64,000 nucleotides of DNA from an uncultured beta proteobacterium. GTDB lineage: Bacteria > Pseudomonadota > Gammaproteobacteria > Burkholderiales > SG8-41. Shown in pieces: positions 3,097-29,319 of this stretch. The stretch spans positions 144,233 through 208,232 of the forward strand of contig CAVZWF010000005.1 in NCBI GenBank assembly GCA_963778865.1, read 5' to 3'. Within the stretch, counting starts at the first letter, position 1. Each line of letters begins with the position of its first letter. The translations under genes and the position numbers were made by a program. The notes below the pieces were generated by a model that searched no databases, was not told the DNA's origin, and worked only from the letters and a program-made list of their open reading frames with translations.

Positions 3097-4041
3097 TTGG
3101 GGTGAGGGGATAGCTGAGGTGACTTCTATGGGTTTATCGCCGAAGCGCGCCAGAAAATCCGCCGCGCTGACGGGTTGTCCGTCGAGATCCATTTCAAGGA
3201 CGCGCAGTGTAACGCCATCCGCGCAGGTTGCATAACACGCGCCGCGCTCGACGTAGAGCTGCGGCCGCGGCGCACCCGGGCGCGGCCGCGCTTTCCACGC
3301 GCGTGCGCAGTATACGCAATGTCCTGCCGCCGATCTCGGTAAAGGCGCCGGGGTAGGGCGGCGCCACGCCGCGCACCAGATTGTGTATGCGCGCCGCCGG
3401 CAGGCGCCAGTCGATGCGCCCGTCTTCCGGCTTGCGTCCGCCGTAATATCCGCCCTGCGTGAGGTCCTGCGGCCTGCGCGGCGCATTGCCATTGATGAGC
3501 GCGGGCAGGCTGCGGTCGAGCACGCGCGCCGCCGCCGCGGTGACTTTGCGAAACACGTCCGCCGCGGTGTCGTCGGGCAGTATGGGGACCGCCTCCTGAT
3601 CCACGATATCGCCGGCATCCGGCTTGGCCGTCATGTAATGCAGCGTGGCGCCGGTTTCGCGTCTCGCCGTTGATCACCGCCCAGTTCACCGGCACGCGCC
3701 CGCGGTATTTCGGCAGCAGCGAGCCGTGCATGTTGAGCGCGCCGCGTTTCGGCACGGCGAGCAGCGGCGGCTTCAGCATGTTGCGGTAATAGAACGAAAA
3801 CAGGAAGTCCGGCGCCAGCGCGCGGATGCGATCGACGGTATCCGGCGCATTCGGATCGTCCGGCGCAATCGCCGGCAGGCCGCGGCTGGCGGCGAGCTCG
3901 CTTGACGCTGTCGAACCAGATCTTCTCGGCGGGGTTGTCGTCATGCGTGACGACCAGCGACACGTCGACGCCGTGGTTCAGCAATACCGAGAGACATTGG
4001 ACGCCGACGTTGTGATAGGCGAAGACGACGGCGGAGGTCAT
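3082..4041 (-). CDS. arnA: UDP-4-amino-4-deoxy-L-arabinose formyltransferase (ArnA N-terminal-domain homologue as a separate gene), at least three frameshifts
   Basis: Pieces in ORFs 3631..4164 ([17 protein letters not shown]), 3126..3944 ([14 protein letters not shown]...[25 protein letters not shown]), 3194..3634 and 3082..3618. Formyltransferase HxSLLPxxRG motif. Confidence 0.8.
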
Positions 4042-4043
4042 GG

Positions 4044-4204
4044 GTGAAACGTGAATCGTGAAACGTGAATCGTGAGTCGTGAGTCGAAAATGTGAAGGCA
4101 GCGAGTATTTTGTGGTGCCGGCGCAACCGCGCCAGCTCTTCGATTTTGACGACTCACGATTCACGATTCACCATTCACGGATTTATTCACCATTCACCAT
4201 TCAC
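4044..4204. repeat. Large inverted repeat built from tandem heptamers (6 x GTGA[A/G][A/T]C, about 64-bp spacer, then 6-7 x complementary [G/C]A[T/C]TCAC)
   Basis: GTGAAAC GTGAATC GTGAAAC GTGAATC GTGAGTC GTGAGTC at 4044..4085. GACTCAC GATTCAC GATTCAC CATTCAC ...CATTCAC CATTCAC at 4151..4204. Fills the arnC-to-formyltransferase spacer. Confidence 0.75.
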
Positions 4205-5155
4205 GCATCTGTCTTCTCAAGCACCGCCTGCATCAGATACCGCGGCCGGCTGCGCACCTGCTGGTAGATGCGGCCGATGTACTCGCCGAGCAGGCCCGAG
4301 ACCGAACAGGACGAGGCCCGTCAGAAAAAACTGCAGGATGTCGCGGTCCCACAGCGCCAGCAGCCCTTCGCGCATGCTGTCCGCCGCGATCCAGCGCTGC
4401 ACGATGACGCCGATGTATACCAGCACGGACACCACGGCGACGAACATGCCGAGCAGCGAAAACACCTGCAACGGCACGATGGAAAAGCCGGTCACGAGGT
4501 CGAAGTTGAGCCGGATCAGGCTGTAGAGCGAATATTTCGATTCGCCGGCGGCGCGTTCCTCGTGCGCGACCTCGACTTCGGTCGGGTTGCCCGCGTAGGT
4601 GTAGGCGAGCGCGGGAATGAAGGTATTGATCTCGCTGCTCGATTTGATGGCATCGACGATGCGCCGGTCGTACGCGCGCAGCATGCAGCCCTGATCGGTC
4701 ATGCGTATGCGGGTGATGCGCTCGCGTATCCAGTTCATGGTGCGCGAGGCATAGCGGCGGAACGCGGAATCCTGACGCTGCAGGCGCACGGTTCCGACGT
4801 AATCGTGACCGCTGGTCCATCGCCGCCAGCAGCTTGCCGATTTCCTCGGGCGGATTCTGCAGGTCGGCGTCGAGCGTGACGATGCGGCTGCCGCGGCAAT
4901 GCTCGAAGCCCGCCATGATCGCCATGTGCTGGCCGAAGTTGCCGTTGAACAGAATCACGCGCGTGACGTCGGGCCGCGCTCGAATTGTTCGCGCAACAGC
5001 GCCGCCGAGCGGTCGCGGCTGCCGTCGTTGATGAACACCACTTCGTAGCTCGCGCCCAGCGCGTCGAGCGCGGGATACAGGCGCGCGAACAGCAGCGGCA
5101 GCGCCTGCTCTTCGTTGTAAACCGGAATGATCACGGAAACGGTCGGTGCGGTCAT
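4201..5155 (-). CDS. arnC: Undecaprenyl-phosphate 4-deoxy-4-formamido-L-arabinose transferase (GT2), at least three frameshifts
   Basis: ORFs 4955..5155 ([11 protein letters not shown]), 4233..4958 ([20 protein letters not shown]...[13 protein letters not shown]) and 4217..4789. Final frame reads [30 protein letters not shown] with stop 4201..4203. Confidence 0.85.
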
Positions 5156-5230: not shown

Positions 5231-5602
5231 TCACGAACGCGTCACCAGAACGACGCCGATGATGATGACGCCGATGCCGGCGAGCCGCATCGGCGTCACC
5301 GCTTCGCCGAAGAGATACCATGCGGCGATCGCATTGACCACGTAACCCACCGACAGCAGCGGATACGCGATGCTGACTTCGACGCGCGACAGCGCCATGA
5401 TCCACACGATCACGCTGATGACGTAGCAGCCGAGTCCGCCGACGATGTGCGGTTCGGTCGCGAGCTTCCAGCCGACCGGGAGGAGGTTGTCGCGGCTGAA
5501 TTCGAACACGCCGACGCTGTTGGTGCCGGCCTTGAGCAGGAGCTGTGCGCCGGCGTTGAGCAGTACGCCGGTCATCAGCAGGGAAAAACTGACTGCGTTC
5601 AT
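5231..5602 (-). CDS. Small four-TM SMR/EamA-like membrane protein, ArnE/ArnF-like flippase subunit candidate
   Basis: Intact 123-aa hydrophobic ORF between arnT and arnC. Assignment rests on size, topology and position. Only one such gene is present. Confidence 0.6.
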   Translation of the reverse strand: MNAVSFSLLMTGVLLNAGAQLLLKAGTNSVGVFEFSRDNLLPVGWKLATEPHIVGGLGCYVISVIVWIMALSRVEVSIAYPLLSVGYVVNAIAAWYLFGEAVTPMRLAGIGVIIIGVVLVTRS

Positions 5603-5620: not shown

Positions 5621-7247
5621 TTAGCGCGCCACGGTGCGCACGAACACGCGCTCGGTATCGCGCGCAATCAACTGCATGGGAAGTTGCGCCTGCTGCAATT
5701 CAGCGAATACTTCAAGGCTCATGACCGCCAGCGCGTAATCGTCGCTGCGCCACCGGCGCTCGAATTCGGCGAGCGTCGGCACCCATAAGCGCGGGTTCCT
5801 GCTGCGAGGCCGTAGGCCATTTCGTCCTGGTAATCGACCAGCGTCACCGTGCGTTTGATATAAAACGGCAGCGTCTGTTCGTAGGTGCGCACGCTGTAAA
5901 TCGGCGCATCGGGCTTCAGGTAAGGTTTGAGTTCCTGCGCCAGATGATACGTCGAATGCGCGGGCGACAGCGCGTCTTCGCTCGCCACCAGCAATTGCGT
6001 CGTTGCGAGCCCCGCGAAGGCGCACGCGATGATCGCGGGCCTGACCTGCTGCCGCGCCACGGCGAAGACCATGGCGGCCAGCGTGCCCGCGAGCAACGTC
6101 GCGCCCGCGGCATAGAGCCAGGGAATTTGCGCGAGATACAGCGCGGCCGGAATTCCCTCCGAGGCGAGCCTGACCGTATAGGGCGCTGCGATCAACCCGG
6201 CCACCGCCAGCAGCGGCGACCGGCGCAAGTTGCAGCGCCAGCGCGCGTCCGCTGATGGTCGTCAGGCGCAGCCCGATGACGAGCGCCAGCGCGGGAAAGA
6301 CCGGCAGGATGTAGGAGGGCAGCTTGGAGCCGGATAGCGGAAAAGAACGCGAAAATAAAGCCGGCCCACAACAGCGTGAACAGCAGGGGATCGAAGTCGC
6401 GGCCTCCGGCGAGCCGCTTGCGCGCATTGATTAGCGCATCGATGAGCGTGACGAGCCACGGCAGGATGCCCGCCAGCAGGATCGGGAATGAAAAAATACC
6501 ACGGCTGGTAGCGCTGATGAATGGTCGAGGTGTAGCGCTGCAGGTGTTCGTGCACGAAAAAGAACCACGCGAACTCGGGATTTTCGAGCGATACCGCGAT
6601 GAACCACGGCGCCGTGATCGCCAGAAACAGGAGGCCGCACGATGACGAGATGCAATTTGCGCAGCAGCGAGAAATCGCGCTTGACCAGCATGTAGAGCAC
6701 CACGACCGCGCCCGGCAGGACGATGCCGATCAGGCCTTTGCTCAATACCGCCAGCGCGCAACCCGCGGCGGCGACGTGCATCCAGCGCCGGTTGGTGCGG
6801 GCATCCGCGCGCGGATCGAGTCCGAGCAGGATGCCCGCAAGCGCCACCGTCAGGAAAAATGCGAGCCCCATGTCGAGCGTGAGGATGTGGGCGAGCGCCG
6901 AGTAGAGCACGCTGCTGCGCGAGCACCAGCGCGGTATACAGGCCGGCGGTCGCGCCGTAGAGCCGCGCGCCGACAAAATACATCAGCAGCACGCCGAGCA
7001 ATCCGGTCAGCGCCGGCCACAGGCGCGCCGTCCAGTGGTGTTCGCCGAACACGCGGTAGGCGGCGGCGGTCGCCCAGTATTGCAGCGGCGGCTTCTCGAA
7101 ATACTTGATGCCGTTCAGGCGCGGCGTGAGCCAGTCGCCGCTTTGCGCCATGTAGCGCGGAATTTCGGAGTAGCGGCCTTCGTCGGAGAGCGACAGTTTG
7201 CGGTATTCGAGATTGCCGCACCAGATGACGACGGCGACAAGCAGCAT
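5621..7247 (-). CDS. arnT: 4-amino-4-deoxy-L-arabinose lipid A transferase (GT83/PMT-like), multiple frameshifts
   Basis: Pieces in ORFs 6192..7247 (DEGRYSEIPRYMAQSGDWLTPRLNGIKYFEKPPLQYW), 6431..6976, 6262..6555, 5719..6228 and 5621..6427. Confidence 0.8.
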
Positions 7248-7409: not shown

Positions 7410-8441
7410 TCAAACACGCTGTCTTCGTTCGCGCTCACCGTGAGCGATGCGCCGTGCGCGAGGCCGCGGATAATGCTTGAGCGTCGAGCGCGTGTACGCG
7501 GGGTCGTAGTGCATTTCCAGCAGTTCGCGCACCAGCGCATCCCACGCGCCGTTGGCGGCGAGCGCTTTCCATGCCGCGATCTGCGCCTGTCCGTAATGCG
7601 CGGCGAGACAATCGAGCTGCGTGCCGAGCGCCGCGGCGTCGGCGACAAAATGGCGTATTCGTCTCTTCAGCATCTCGACGCGCAGCTCGATCGACGTCTC
7701 CAGCCTGACGCACGCGCTGTCCCACATCGCCGCGATCAGCGTCTGCGGCACGCGCAGGTTGCCGATCTTCTTGCTTTCCGCTTCGACGAATACGGGCTGC
7801 GCGCGATCGAATCCGCGCAAGGCCGACCACACCAGGCTTTCGAACATTTTCTGCGCGGGTTGCGGCTCGTCGGGCAGATTGCCGAGCACCGATCCGCGAT
7901 GCGCGGCCAGCGCTTCGAGATCGAGCACCTGCGCGCCCTGTTGCGCAAGCGCGCGCAACAGCCGGCTTTTGCCCGAGCCGGTGAGCCCGCATATGACGCG
8001 CCAGTCGTAGCGCTGCGGCAGGACTTCGAGGTCGTCGATGACCGCGCGCCGGTAGGTTTTGTAACCGCCGTCGAGCCGCGCCGCGCGCCAGCCGACCTGC
8101 TGCAGCACGTGCGTGAGCGCGGCGCTGCGGCTGCCGCCGCGCCAGCAGTAGACGAGCGGACGCCAGGTGCGCGGGCGCTGCGCGAAGGTGGCGTCGAGGT
8201 GGCTGGCGATATTGCGGCTGACGAGCGCCGCGCCGAGTTTCTTGGCGTCGAACGCGGACACCTGCTTGTAGATGGTGCCGACGCGCGCGCGCTCGGCGTC
8301 GTTCAGCACCGGGCAGTTGATCGCGCCGGGAATATGATCTTCGGCAAATTCGGATTCGGAGCGCGTGTCGATAATCTCGTCAAACTCGGCGAGTTGTGCT
8401 ACGGTGACCAGGTCGCCACTGCACGCGAATGCAGTACCCAA
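7410..8441 (-). CDS. selU: tRNA 2-selenouridine synthase (rhodanese + P-loop); C-terminal end uncertain (probable frameshift near 7470)
   Basis: ORF 7410..8441 has the CWRGGSRS rhodanese loop and the GLTGSGKS P-loop. The tail plausibly continues in ORF 7247..7648 (GLAHGASLTVS...). Confidence 0.85.
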   Translation of the reverse strand: MGTAFACSGDLVTVAQLAEFDEIIDTRSESEFAEDHIPGAINCPVLNDAERARVGTIYKQVSAFDAKKLGAALVSRNIASHLDATFAQRPRTWRPLVYCWRGGSRSAALTHVLQQVGWRAARLDGGYKTYRRAVIDDLEVLPQRYDWRVICGLTGSGKSRLLRALAQQGAQVLDLEALAAHRGSVLGNLPDEPQPAQKMFESLVWSALRGFDRAQPVFVEAESKKIGNLRVPQTLIAAMWDSACVRLETSIELRVEMLKRRIRHFVADAAALGTQLDCLAAHYGQAQIAAWKALAANGAWDALVRELLEMHYDPAYTRSTLKHYPRPRARRIAHGERERRQRV

Positions 8442-8470
8442 ATTAAGCCCCGATGAACAATCCGATGGAC

Positions 8471-9512
8471 ATGCAGAAAATCAAGCTGACCGCATTCTCA
8501 CACGGCGGCGGATGAGGCTGCAAACTACCGCCAGCGTTGCTGGGGGAATTGCTGTCGAAGATACCGCTCGCGCGCGCGTATCCGGATCTGCTCGTCGGCA
8601 CCGAGTCGAGCGACGATGCGGCGGTCTATCGCATCAACGACGAGCAGGCGATCGTCGCGACCACGGATTTTTTTCTGCCGATCGTCGACGATCCGTACGA
8701 TTTCGGCCGCATCGCCGCGACCAATGCGATTTCCGACATTTACGCGATGGGCGCGCAGCCGCTGTTCGCGCTGGCGTTGGTCGGCATGCCGGTCGGCAAG
8801 CTGCCGGTCGAGGCGATGCAGCAGATACTCGCGGGCGGGCACGCCGTGTGCGAGGCCGCGGGCATTCCGATTGCCGGCGGGCATTCGATCGACAATCCCG
8901 AGCCGATCTACGGGCTCGTCGCGCTCGGTCTCGTGCATCCGTCGCGCATCAAGCGCAACGACCGCGCGCAGGCCGGCGACGTGCTGATCCTGGGCAAGGC
9001 GCTGGGCGTCGGCATCCTGAGCGCGGCGCTGAAAAAAGGCGAGTTGCGCGACAAGGCCTACCAGCAAATGCTCGAGACGACGACGCAGCTCAATACCGCC
9101 GGCATCGCGCTCGCCGAACTCGCCGGCGTGCACGCGATGACCGACGTGACCGGCTTCGGCCTGCTCGGGCATCTGCACGAAATCTGCCGCGGCTCGAAAT
9201 TGCACGCGGACATCCGATTTCGACTCGTTGCCGATACTCTCGGCGGCGAAGCACCTCGCGCAGGACGGCTACGCGACCGGCGCGTCGGACCGCAACTGGG
9301 CGAGCGTCGAGCCGCACGTGACGTTGCCGCCGGGCATGCCGGACTGGCAGAAGAAGCTGCTGACCGATCCGCAGACGAGCGGCGGCCTGCTGGTCGCGTG
9401 CGATCGCGCGAGCGCGCCGCGCGTGCTGGAAATCTTCAGGCAGCAGGGTTTCAAATATGCGTGCGAGATCGGCGCGCTCGCGGCCGGGCCCGCGACGATA
9501 GGCGTGAGTTGA
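8471..9512 (+). CDS. selD: Selenide, water dikinase (selenophosphate synthetase) with in-frame TGA (putative Sec) at codon 15; one frameshift near 9221
   Basis: ATG 8471 gives MQKIKLTAFSHGGG-TGA-GCKLPPALLGELL, in frame with ORF 8537..9613. The C-terminus continues in ORF 9228..9512. The TGA (8513..8515) aligns with Cys17 of the E. coli SHGAGCGCK motif and the Sec of Haemophilus-type SelD. Confidence 0.85.
8520..8552 (+). promoter_or_regulatory. Candidate bacterial SECIS hairpin downstream of the selD TGA
   Basis: GCAA-ACUA-CCGCCAGC-GUU-GCUGGGGG-AA-UUGC. Lower 4-bp stem and an upper 8-bp stem with one mismatch. The apical loop lies about 23 nt after the UGA. Confidence 0.45.
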
Positions 9513-9621
9513 CGGAACCGGTTACAGCTGCGTGTTTCGCACCCCGCTTGTTTTTTCTGATTTTGCGTCGCACGTGCGAGGTGCACTCAAGAATAATGCA
9601 ATTTACTTGCTGATTTGTAAT

Positions 9622-26091: not shown

Positions 26092-26110
26092 GTCGATCGA
26101 GGAGCGAGCC

Positions 26111-26305
26111 ATGACGACGAAACCCGGTTCCAGCCGCAGAAAATTTCTGGCCACGCTCGGCGTGGGCGGCGCCGCCGCCGCGACTGTTGCGCTTACCCGG
26201 CAGGGTGCCGAGCCCGCACGCGCGACCGAGGCCGCCGCGCCGCAGGGCAAGGGCTATCAGCTCACGGAACACGTGCGCAACTACTACCGTACCGCCAAAG
26301 TTTAA
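26111..26305 (+). CDS. Formate dehydrogenase region Tat-signal small protein (64 aa, intact)
   Basis: SRRKFLATLGVGGAAAA twin-arginine motif. Position immediately upstream of fdhA is typical of this small family. Confidence 0.75.
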   Translation: MTTKPGSSRRKFLATLGVGGAAAATVALTRQGAEPARATEAAAPQGKGYQLTEHVRNYYRTAKV

Positions 26306-26323
26306 TCCGCCGGAGACGCCATC

Positions 26324-29319
26324 ATGTTATTGACCAGAAAAGCGAGCACCGCCGCGACGCCTGCCAGCCGCTTGAGCCGCAATGTCGCGGGTTATCTCGG
26401 CAATACGCATAGACCGCCGCGCGTTCCTCAAACGCTCGGGTCTCGCGGTGGGCGCGGGTGCCGCGGTGAGCCAGCTGCCGTTCTCGATGATGGGCAAGGC
26501 GAAGGCGGCCGACAAGACGGAGGGCGCCAAACTCGAGGTCAAGCGCACGGTCTGCACGCATTGTTCGGTGGGCTGCGCGATCGACGCCGTGGTGCAGAAC
26601 GGCGTGTGGATACGCCAGGAGCCGGTGTTCGATTCGCCGATCAATCTCGGCGCGCACTGCGCCAAAGGCGCTTCCATACGCGAGCACGGCCACGGCGAGC
26701 ACCGCTTGAAATACCCGATGAAGCTCGTCGACGGCAAGTGGAAGACGCATCACCTGGGACGATGCGTTGAAAGAGGTCAGCGAAAAGCTGCTGGCGATCA
26801 AGAAGGAAAGCGGGCCGGACGCGACGTTCTGGATCGGTTCCAGCAAGCACAACAACGAGCAGTCGTATCTCTTCCGCAAGTTCGTGTCGTTCTTCGGCAC
26901 CAACAACATGGACCACCAGGCGCGCATCTGCCATTCGACGACGGTCGCGGGGGTTGCGAACACCTGGGGCTATGGCGCGATGACCAACTCGTACAACGAC
27001 GAGCAGAATTCGAAGTGCATCCTGTTCTTCGGCAGCAACGCGGCGGAAGCGCACCCGGTGTCGATGCTGCACACGCTGCATGCCAAGGAGAACGGCGCCA
27101 AGGTGATCTGTGTCGATCCGCGCTTCACGCGCACCGCGGCCAAGGCGGACAAGTACTACCGCATACGTTCGGGCGCTGACGTCGCGTTCCTGATGGGCAT
27201 GCTGCACCACATATTCAAGAACGGCTGGGAAGACAAGGATTACATCAAGGCCCGCGTTTACGGCATGGACAAGGTCAGGGACGAAGCCGCCAAGTGGACG
27301 CCCGACAAGGTCGAGGAAGTCACCGGCATGAAGGAAGCGGAAGTGCGCGACGTGGCGGAGACGATGGCCAAGAACCGTCCGAGCACCATCGTGTGGGCGA
27401 TGGGCCAGACGCAGCACACCAACGGCAACGCGATCGTGCGCGCGAGTTGCATTCTGCAGCTGGCGCTCGGCAATGTCGGCGTGGCGGGCGGCGGCTGCAA
27501 CATCTACCGCGGCCACGACAACGTGCAGGGCGCGACCGACGTCGGGCCCAATCCGGACTCGCTGCCGGGTTATTACGGCCTGCTGCCGGGATCGTGGGCG
27601 CACTTCGCGCGCGCGTGGGGTGTCGATCTCGACTGGATCAAGAAACAGTTCGCGACGCCGGCGATGATGGAAAAACCGGGCATTACGGTGTCGCGCTGGA
27701 TCGACGCCGTGCTCGAGAAAAACGAGAGCCTCGACCAGGATTCGAATCTGCGCGCGGTGGTGTACTGGGGGCACGCGCCCAACAGCCAGACACGCGGCGT
27801 GGAGATGCAGGCTGCGATGCACGCGCTCGATCTGCTCGTGGTGGTGGATCCGTATCCGTCGGCGACGGCGGCGATGACGGCGTTGCCGTTGAGCGAGCAG
27901 GCGCAGAAGATACTCAAGGACGCCGGCAAGGAGCCCGCCAAGAACCGCACCGTGTACCTGCTGCCGGCCGCGACCCAGCTCGAATGCGCGGGCTCGGTGA
28001 CCGCATCGAACCGCTCGATCCAGTGGCGCGAAAAAGTGATCGAGCCGATGTTCGAGTCGCGCACCGATCACATGATCATGTATCAACTGGCGCAGAAATT
28101 CGGTTTCGCCGACCAACTCGTCGGCAAGCAGGCCGACGGCAAGCAAAAGATCAAGCTCGTCAAGGGCAAGGGCGGGATGGACGAGCCCGACGTCGAGGAT
28201 GTGCTGCGCGAAATCAACCGCAGCGTGTGGACGATAGGCTACACCGGGCACTCGCCGGAGCGGCTGCAGGCGCACATGCGCAACATGCACGTGTTCGACA
28301 TCAAGACGCTGCGCGCCAAAGGCGGCAAGGACGCCAAGACCGGCTACGTGCTCGACGGCGATTACTTCGGCCTGCCGTGGCCGTGCTACGGCACGCCGGA
28401 ATTGAAGCATCCGGGTTCGCCGGTGCTCTACAACACGGAACTGAACATGATGGACGGCGGCGGAAATTTCCGCGCCAATTTCGGCGTCGAGCGCGAAGGC
28501 GTCAACCTGCTCGCGGAAGACGGCTCGTGTTCAAAGGGTGCGGACCTCGCGACCGGCTATCCGGAGTTCGACCACGTGCTGCTGAAAAAACTCGGCTGGT
28601 GGGACGAGTTGACCGAGGACGAGAAAAAGGCGGCCGAAGGCAAGAACTGGAAGACCGATTCGTCGGGCGGCATCATCCGCGTGGCGATGAAGAATCACGG
28701 CTGCCATCCGTTCGGCAACGCCAAGGCGCGCGCGCTGGTGTGGAATTTCCCGGATGCGGTGCCGTTGCATCGCGAGCCGCTGTTCAGCCCGCGGCCGGAT
28801 CTGGTGGAAAAATATCCGACGCACGACGATCAGAAAAACCGCTGGCGCATGCCGGTGTTGTTCAAGACCGTGCAGCAGGCGAACAAGGACGCAGTCAAGC
28901 AGTATCCGCTGATCATGACCAGCGGACGCCTGGTCGAGTACGAGGGCGGCGGCGAGGAGACGCGTTCCAACCCGTGGCTGGCCGAACTGCAGCAGGAAAT
29001 GTTCGTCGAGATCAATCCCAAGGACGCCAACGACCGCGGCCTGAAGAACGACGAATACGTGTGGGTCGAGACGCCGACCAAGGCGCGCCTCAAGGTCAAG
29101 ACGCAGGTGACCGAGCGTGTCGCCTCGGGCACGGTCTTCCTGCCGTTCCACTTTTCGGGGTGGTTCCAGGGCAAGGACCTGCTCGACCAATACCCGGAGG
29201 GCGCGGCGCCCATCGTGCGCGGCGAGGCGATCAATACCGCGACCACCTACGGTTACGACATCGTGACCATGATGCAGGAAACGAAGACCACGCTGTGCCA
29301 GATCAGCAAAGCGGCATAA
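26324..29319 (+). CDS. fdhA: Periplasmic formate dehydrogenase catalytic (Mo/W-bisPGD) subunit, Cys-type; two frameshifts near the 5' end
   Basis: ORFs 26324.., 26382..27179 (RRAFLKRSGL Tat signal; CTHCSVGC Fe-S motif) and 26767..29319 (850 aa intact; QARICHSTTVAG active-site Cys at 26929..26931). Confidence 0.9.

Follow-up and report, generated by a model that had tools for sequence, protein, structure and literature searches.

Selenophosphate synthetase (selenide, water dikinase, SelD) occurs as a selenocysteine (Sec)-containing enzyme in Haemophilus influenzae, Aquifex aeolicus, many Deltaproteobacteria, and Clostridia. In Sec-type SelD proteins of bacteria (families TIGR00476 and NF002098), Sec belongs to the glycine-rich loop near the N-terminus, where it corresponds to Cys17 of the Escherichia coli enzyme, the Sec insertion sequence (SECIS) hairpin follows within the coding region right after the UGA, and the enzyme is self-dependent. 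The gene analyzed here, selD of an uncultured beta proteobacterium, lies on a stretch of 64,000 nucleotides (nt), hereafter the window (assembly GCA_963778865.1, contig CAVZWF010000005.1, positions 144,233 to 208,232), and resembles these systems in all three respects: an in-frame TGA at the catalytic position is very probably a Sec codon served by a bacterial SECIS, with selD of the window being a selenoprotein gene. Sec-type SelD as such is textbook knowledge, and the understanding of its mechanism is unchanged. The new aspects are limited to the presence of a Sec-type SelD in a large uncultured clade of Betaproteobacteria, a SECIS sequence of its own, what looks like a systematic mis-annotation as short proteins, and a candidate Cys revertant nested in the clade.

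Among bacterial selenoproteins, SelD and FdhA have the widest distribution, and a survey in 2006 listed a single selenoprotein family for the Betaproteobacteria (PMC1794560, Table 2). The same study described Sec-type SelD together with YbbB, but without a Sec-type FdhA, and proposed that such a constellation keeps the Sec trait alive for the synthesis of selenouridine (Zhang, Romero, Salinas, and Gladyshev, 2006, PMC1794560). Large surveys take Sec-type SelD into account as a matter of routine (PMC12013277). The locus in the window shows the pattern of the 2006 study, with a Sec-type selD adjoining ybbB (also named mnmH or selU) and a Cys-type FdhA. Unlike the Sec-type SelD proteins of other bacteria, it belongs to an uncultured clade of Betaproteobacteria/Burkholderiales, which has its own stem (CC-G-CCAGC GUU GCUGG-G-GG) and the protein motif HGGG-U-GCKL[PT]PALL (U, Sec), lacks linkage to selA/selB, and is represented in databases by short entries not annotated with U. 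E. coli SelD (PDB 3u0o) shares family and architecture with the protein of the window, including the SHG-G-x-GCK loop and an equivalent of Lys20, and selD is often paired with ybbB/mnmH (PMC1794560). It differs in having Cys where the window has UGA and in lacking a SECIS constraint downstream; in Betaproteobacteria, genes of this Cys type are free at the synonymous sites in question.

The identity of the gene is supported by family models and by alignment to E. coli SelD. After repair of the frame and with C written for U, the protein scores above the curated cutoff of NF002098 (513 bits, cutoff 299) and reaches 435 bits with TIGR00476 (cutoff 125). A phmmer comparison with E. coli SelD gives E=1e-91 and places SHGGG-[U]-GCK of the window over SHGAG-C17-GC-K20, the catalytic glycine-rich loop, so that the TGA falls on the catalytic Cys as the initial annotation had proposed. 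The frame from ATG 8471 reads MQKIKLTAFSHGGG-TGA-GCKLPPALL and joins the open reading frame (ORF) whose listed start is TTG 8537, which bears out the claim that the TGA stands in frame with the long selD ORF. The start itself had to be moved. ATG 8453 (M-N-x-P...) is kept in 15/15 relatives, while the ATGs at 8465 and 8471, the latter being the start from which the initial annotation had read, are replaced by CTC, ATC, GTG, or CAA. By this comparison, the predicted start codon is ATG 8453, making Sec residue 21 of 352. The terminator is TGA 9510-9512. The ORF listed as 8537-9613 was right in frame, but a single additional nucleotide (C at 9221), which the locus L001 lacks, carries it past the true end of selD, and the frame 9228-9512 encodes the conserved C-terminus of SelD. 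Neighboring genes of the window are fragmented as well (an ArnT-like gene at 6192-7247 and the N-terminal part of the formate dehydrogenase (Fdh) gene), and the extra C is therefore probably an assembly indel.

The conservation of the TGA was followed in two scans. The first, restricted to one genome per species, returned 80 loci, with TGA at this codon in 10 metagenome-assembled genomes (MAGs) of Betaproteobacteria/Burkholderiales and TGC or TGT at the same codon in 69 Cys-type relatives. The second searched metagenomes with the degenerate pattern CAYGGNGGNGGNTGAGGNTGYAAR, which places no constraint on the downstream hairpin, and yielded 120 contigs, 111 of which carry a true selD with TGA at the codon. 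Overall, TGA is found at the homologous codon in 127 other contigs, which differ in sample and assembler, and 83 of these 127 loci have the core CC[AG]GCG[TG]TGCTG of the window in common. An explanation of the TGA by faulty sequencing or assembly of a TGC or TGT draws on the indel errors of the contig (at 9221 and in the fragmented neighbors). These errors, however, are indels and not substitutions, and since 127 other contigs have TGA there, a substitution at 8513-8515 is excluded as far as the comparison of contigs goes; such an error, already judged less likely by the initial annotation, is to be regarded as extremely improbable.

The segment upstream of the TGA behaves as coding sequence. 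In the 11 TGA-type genome sequences, the residues L, T, H, G, G, and G preceding the TGA are invariant, and their codons vary synonymously by 0.44-1.35 bits; downstream of the TGA, selD is 66-94% identical across the clade. Because the peptide is kept under synonymous change and the start ATG is conserved, the upstream segment is predicted to be translated in the same frame as the rest of selD. Databases represent the gene differently. Gene calls are short at the N-terminus for 118 of the 120 nearest database proteins (72-94% identity); the 118 have 306-325 amino acids and cover 88-94% of the query. These calls, which stem from NCBI, ENA, JGI, and Logan predictions, begin just past the Sec codon, and a TGA is present upstream in 5/5 cases with DNA checked. 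Short calls are what a gene caller yields on restart after an in-frame stop, and the entries look like a systematic annotation error across databases: selD is called from a downstream TTG or GTG without its catalytic loop, and reading through the UGA restores the complete enzyme.

The same calls can be read in favor of a true stop, in which case the TGA would end a 20-residue peptide or nothing at all, with SelD starting at TTG 8537 or selD being a pseudogene. Most clade members have TTG or GTG as codon +8, which is compatible with a restart there, and the frameshift at 9221 in the window's contig would suit a pseudogene. On the other side, purifying selection acts on the 20 upstream codons, which share the frame of the remaining gene, and a start at 8537 would drop the loop residues aligned to Cys17 and Lys20 of E. 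coli SelD, which, from mutagenesis, we take to be essential for activity. Moreover, no Shine-Dalgarno sequence precedes 8537, and codon +8 is GAC, GCG, or GTC, i.e. no start codon, in other TGA-type lineages. As to decay of the gene, the rest of selD is highly conserved across the range of 66-94% identity and the frameshift is private to the window's contig. The initial annotation had reckoned with relatives whose selD starts downstream of the codon; instead, the relatives keep both the TGA and a conserved, apparently translated segment ahead of it, and a true stop is very improbable.

A general reassignment of UGA to a sense codon, as in genetic codes 4 or 25, would turn the TGA into an ordinary codon. 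No evidence was found for it, and the lineage of Betaproteobacteria/Burkholderiales uses the standard code. UGA is not reassigned genome-wide, since TGA ends selD itself, mnmH, and 4/5 other confident ORFs of the window; the probability of this explanation is practically nil.

The two-tier hairpin drawn by the initial annotation between 8520 and 8552 is the predicted minimum free energy (MFE) fold, GCAA / CCGCCAGC-GUU-GCUGGGGG / UUGC, with -15.5 kcal/mol for 8513-8555 and -18.5 kcal/mol for 8510-8565; the energy ranges from -15.5 to -18.8 kcal/mol with the choice of segment. In the upper stem, CC 8528-8529 pairs with GG 8545-8546 and CCAGC 8531-8535 with GCUGG 8539-8543; G8530 and G8544 are mismatched, and GUU 8536-8538 forms the apical loop. 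Elsewhere in the clade, a 3'-side bulged A or G takes the place of the G·G mismatch, and on inspection the register of the lower helix shifts between subclades (GCAAGC/GCUUGC in others).

The hairpin was compared with the bacterial SECIS (bSECIS) consensus model of Zhang and Gladyshev, using the criteria of PMC13188914 (Fig. 2). The model asks for an apical loop of 3-9 nt, an upper stem of 4-16 bp, a G at loop position one or two (with G or U as the usual next base), a UGA-to-loop distance of 16-37 nt, and an MFE <= -7.5 kcal/mol (PMC13188914). The window agrees with the model throughout, including the position that the initial annotation had considered appropriate: a 3-nt loop sits on a stem of 5+2 bp across the G·G mismatch, the loop reads G-U-U, 20 nt (8516-8535) separate it from the UGA, and the energy is -15.5 kcal/mol or lower. 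Apical loops vary to GGU and GGC within the clade and to GUC, GGC, GGA, and GGUC in other lineages, and the UGA-to-loop distance is 17-20 nt in nearly all of 102 distinct TGA-type sequences. In fdhF of E. coli, the upper stem-loop starts ~11 nt past the UGA, and the SECIS has a 5'-side bulged U and a GGUC-type loop recognized by E. coli SelB. As in fdhF and fdnG, the hairpin of the window lies directly 3' of the UGA inside the ORF, with the upper stem-loop starting ~12 nt past the UGA, a G followed by U opening a small apical loop, an unpaired stem nucleotide, and a variable lower helix. The bulged U and the GGUC-type loop of fdhF are absent: the window has a GUU triloop instead of GGUC, the stem sequence is unrelated, and the clade shows either the G·G mismatch or a purine bulged on the 3' side. 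The hairpin is predicted to work like a SECIS, albeit one that is not of the fdhF type in sequence.

Comparison of TGA-type with Cys-type genes points to selection on the RNA. Synonymous entropy at codons +5..+10 is ~0 in the TGA-type genes vs 1.07-1.95 bits in the 69 Cys-type genes. The frozen codons are ACG/CCG, CCA (10/11), GCG, TTG, CTG, and AGC/GGG; two of them, CCA and TTG, are rarely used at a GC content of 63%, yet fixed in TGA-type selD. Beyond the hairpin codons, TGA-type genes vary normally at synonymous sites, and in these alignments the RNA-level constraint is confined to the hairpin region. Across 40 distinct sequences with the bulged-A register, the stem is 100% paired, the sole change being A-U to G·U; the single frequent substitution, A to G at column 21 of the alignment, keeps the pair as G·U. 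In the register of the window (16 sequences), 90.6% of cells are paired, a value that 2/500 shuffles reach; pair 18-32 is C-G in 6 of them, G-C in 3, U·G in 1, and a mismatch of purines in 6. TGA-type selD genes of unrelated lineages form stems of entirely other sequence at this offset from the TGA, and their loops are G-first (GCACC-GUC-GGUGC, GGUCC-GGC-GGACC, CCCAAG-GUC-CUUGGG, and GCCCCCGC-CGUGUU-GCGGGGGC); these hairpins across lineages are stronger evidence than the pairing within the clade.

The bSECIS model is passed by 106/114 distinct TGA-type sequences vs 18/70 Cys-type sequences (odds ratio 38, p=7e-22), with the caveat on the criteria that ~26% of the Cys-type controls also pass the whole model. 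The median MFE is -15.8 kcal/mol in the TGA-type vs -13.2 kcal/mol in the Cys-type set (p=3e-5), despite the lower GC content of the former. A strict test that demanded a contiguous stem of >=5 bp and a free energy of the hairpin alone <= -7.5 was passed by 20/114 vs 3/70 sequences and was judged too harsh; the 5-bp core hairpin of the window alone has -5.5, and the MFE-based bSECIS model was used in place of the contiguous-stem criterion. Over the sequences compared, the data show that the UGA is conserved at the catalytic position, that a single frame runs across it, and that selection acts on the RNA of a hairpin at the canonical SECIS offset, and they favor the Sec-type SelD that the initial annotation had suggested. 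One clade member (L131, ~1368) has a 1-nt deletion in the SECIS region (…GCTGGGGAATTACTGG…) that breaks the frame, owing either to faulty assembly or to decay of this copy.

Several observations weigh against a Sec codon decoded by means of a SECIS. When the hairpin alone is shuffled, z is only -1.5 and -1.8, and 19/200 and 8/200 shuffles match it. Rfam gives no match in the whole window at gathering thresholds. The stem is mostly conserved within the clade and shows little covariation, with one pair changed on both sides, and RNAalifold on 11 sequences preferred another, weak fold, in which GGCUGC pairs with GCCAGC. The reading frame of selD in the window's contig is broken at 9221, and a recent pseudogene in this particular genome is possible. 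The only Fdh alpha subunit of the window is of Cys type and offers no second selenoprotein as corroboration. Finally, the Sec machinery is missing from the DNA at hand: ARAGORN found no tRNA in the window, in the 10 TGA-type genome loci, or in nine syntenic loci of 13-21 kb, tblastn with E. coli SelA and SelB gave no match in the window, beside selD in the clade members, or on any metagenome contig of the clade, and selA, selB, and tRNA-Sec were not found in the ~236 kb of the window plus the nine syntenic loci. As regards the hairpin, it is no proof on its own; its weight comes from comparison across contigs, because TGA and hairpin recur together in >100 independent contigs. The alternative fold of RNAalifold was rejected, given that GGC-TGC is equally conserved in Cys-type genes and that the pairing is missing from other lineages, which keep the hairpin at the SECIS offset. 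A local Rfam search at E<=10 had a Gurken match on the opposite strand as its sole result, which is spurious.

As regards the machinery, matches to SelA/SelB were found only beside some Cys-type selD genes and in L133, a 7.9-kb contig of a distant lineage (SAMEA5043665 coassembly), and no Sec genes occur within 10 kb of selD on six contigs of 13-233 kb. L133 carries a TGA-type selD together with selA, selB, and a tRNA-SeC(tca), the only one detected by ARAGORN (2514-2605, with the selD match on the + strand); the hairpin of its selD is CCCAAG-GUC-CUUGGG. By its gene content, this compact and apparently complete Sec cluster serves as a positive control for the HGGG-TGA-GCK architecture.

The lack of Sec genes in the clade DNA examined and the Cys-type Fdh of the window would also suit a non-classical recoding of the UGA, either by a tRNA-Sec-like tRNA(Cys) with SelB or by hairpin-stimulated near-cognate read-through (Trp, Cys, or Gly) without selA/selB/selC. 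Mukai and colleagues reportedly described the former, i.e. Cys insertion by a tRNA-Sec-like tRNA(Cys) with SelB in some bacteria. However, the content of the hairpin loop and its spacing fit the SelB-dependent bSECIS model, HGGG-TGA-GCK is physically linked to selA-selB-tRNA-SeC in L133, the DNA examined is a small part of each genome, and a lone Sec-type SelD with YbbB is known from Sec-decoding organisms (PMC1794560). A non-classical route is thus quite improbable, and so, to the same degree, is the case in which the clade genomes lack selA, selB, and tRNA-Sec and decode UGA plus hairpin by a SelB-independent or non-Sec mechanism. If this were true, the clade would have a functional SelD for selenouridine only and a new programmed UGA recoding in Betaproteobacteria.

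With a Sec codon as the preferred explanation, we infer that SelB, SelA, and tRNA-Sec are encoded elsewhere in the genome and that Sec rather than another residue is inserted. It is supposed that the selD mRNA is translated from AUG 8453 and that the hairpin 3' of the UGA (8513-8515) acts as a SECIS with the upper stem-loop 8528-8546. On approach of the ribosome, the lower helix, which differs among subclades (8520-8523 with 8549-8552 in the window), would melt, and SelB·GTP·Sec-tRNA(Sec) bound to the stem-loop 8528-8546 would deliver Sec to the UGA. Residue 21, part of the glycine-rich loop near the N-terminus and equivalent to the catalytic Cys17 of E. coli SelD, would be Sec, and translation would end at the second UGA, 9510-9512, which is not followed by such a hairpin. 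The product would supply selenophosphate to the adjacent MnmH for 2-selenouridine in tRNA and to its own Sec synthesis, closing a self-dependent loop.

The organisms of the clade are probably Sec users, and their selenium metabolism appears to be centered on tRNA selenouridine, with the selD-mnmH pair and a Cys-type Fdh. This fits the idea that Sec-type SelD alone can maintain the Sec-decoding trait. That the full Sec machinery is kept solely for SelD as the only selenoprotein is a tentative suggestion and rather doubtful, albeit likelier than a decoding without the Sec machinery; SelD as sole selenoprotein was already hypothesized in 2006 (PMC1794560). The correction of the annotation covers a whole, apparently abundant, uncultured clade of soil and freshwater Betaproteobacteria, and the ~100 distinct TGA-type sequences with SECIS-like hairpins are usable to train selenoprotein predictors.

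In a neighbor-joining tree of 152 distinct SelD proteins, the window falls into a clade with 50 leaves, of which 49 are TGA-type and one is Cys-type; the tree is distance-based and bears no support values, and its sampling of TGA-type sequences is skewed by the search pattern. The Cys-type leaf (L207, in the tree P0039; selD at 3840-4892 of ENA ERZ1079235 k127_473725) has TGT at the codon, is nested in the TGA clade, and keeps the ArnT-SelU-SelD-lipase-ABC synteny; its post-codon sequence has diverged and folds at just -11.1 kcal/mol, the hairpin being lost. Sec-to-Cys is the sole direction of change reported for SelD (PMC1794560), and the same synteny together with the decayed hairpin makes L207 a candidate for a recent Sec-to-Cys reversion in place. 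The clade thereby offers what may be a natural revertant with a decayed hairpin. In the same tree, a lone TGA-type selD on a 14.8-kb contig (L179; GCKLAPGVL, hairpin GCACC-GGG-GGUGC) lies inside a cluster of otherwise Cys-type betaproteobacterial sequences and possibly represents a Sec lineage of its own or a change from Cys to Sec. A further selD of the TGA clade (72% identity, same hairpin) comes from a MAG labelled 'uncultured Streptomycetaceae' (CAZFRR010000101.1) and is probably located on a mis-binned contig.

The features of the window are collected in the following table.

Table 1. Features around selD and the Fdh gene in the window (positions are those of the 64,000-nt stretch).
Feature	Position	Strand	Remarks
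mnmH/selU (ybbB), tRNA 2-selenouridine synthase	7410..8441	-	NF008752, 494 bits (cutoff 266)
selD (selenide, water dikinase / selenophosphate synthetase)	8453..9512	+	352 codons, predicted Sec codon read through
In-frame TGA, predicted Sec codon, residue 21 (SHGGG-U-GCK)	8513..8515	+	Aligns to Cys17 of E. coli SelD
bSECIS-like two-tier hairpin	8520..8552	+	Lower helix GCAA 8520-8523 / UUGC 8549-8552; MFE folds
Putative SECIS upper stem-loop	8528..8546	+	Encoded by the frozen codons +5..+10; MFE folds
Extra C in selD (…HADIRF/DSLPIL…)	9221	+	Single 1-nt gap in blastn of the window vs L001
Molybdopterin Fdh alpha subunit	26100-29319	+	Best PDB match FdhA 9vap, E=2e-123

The mnmH gene is transcribed divergently from selD and adjoins it in nearly all clade members, where its product shows the Pfam domains Rhodanese and AAA_SelU. 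The order ArnT-SelU-SelD-lipase-ABC is found in all six contigs of 13-233 kb. In the window, the divergent starts of mnmH (TTG 8441, minus strand) and selD (ATG 8453) are ~11 nt apart (~24 nt in the clade member L083), and because of this short distance, either both promoters must lie inside the coding region of the partner or the start of mnmH is mis-placed. A tRNA-Lys(CTT) is located ~100 nt upstream of the selD start in the clade members L105 (3044-3119) and L184 (3092-3167).

The Fdh alpha subunit, the upstream part of which is broken by frameshifts, reads ARI-C-HSTTVAG where E. coli FdhF has ARV-Sec140-HGPSVAG. Further in-frame TGAs with coding-like flanks at 5231(-), 40678(+), and 51835(+) were considered as Sec codons, none of them convincingly; they look like gene junctions or frameshift artefacts. 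Downstream of the selD neighborhood, genes for MobA and FdhD and then a MoaA-like radical-SAM gene occur in the window (~17-21 kb) and in relatives (20309-20975 in L086, 15565-17305 in L210), and the selD region is therefore linked to molybdenum-cofactor and Fdh maturation.

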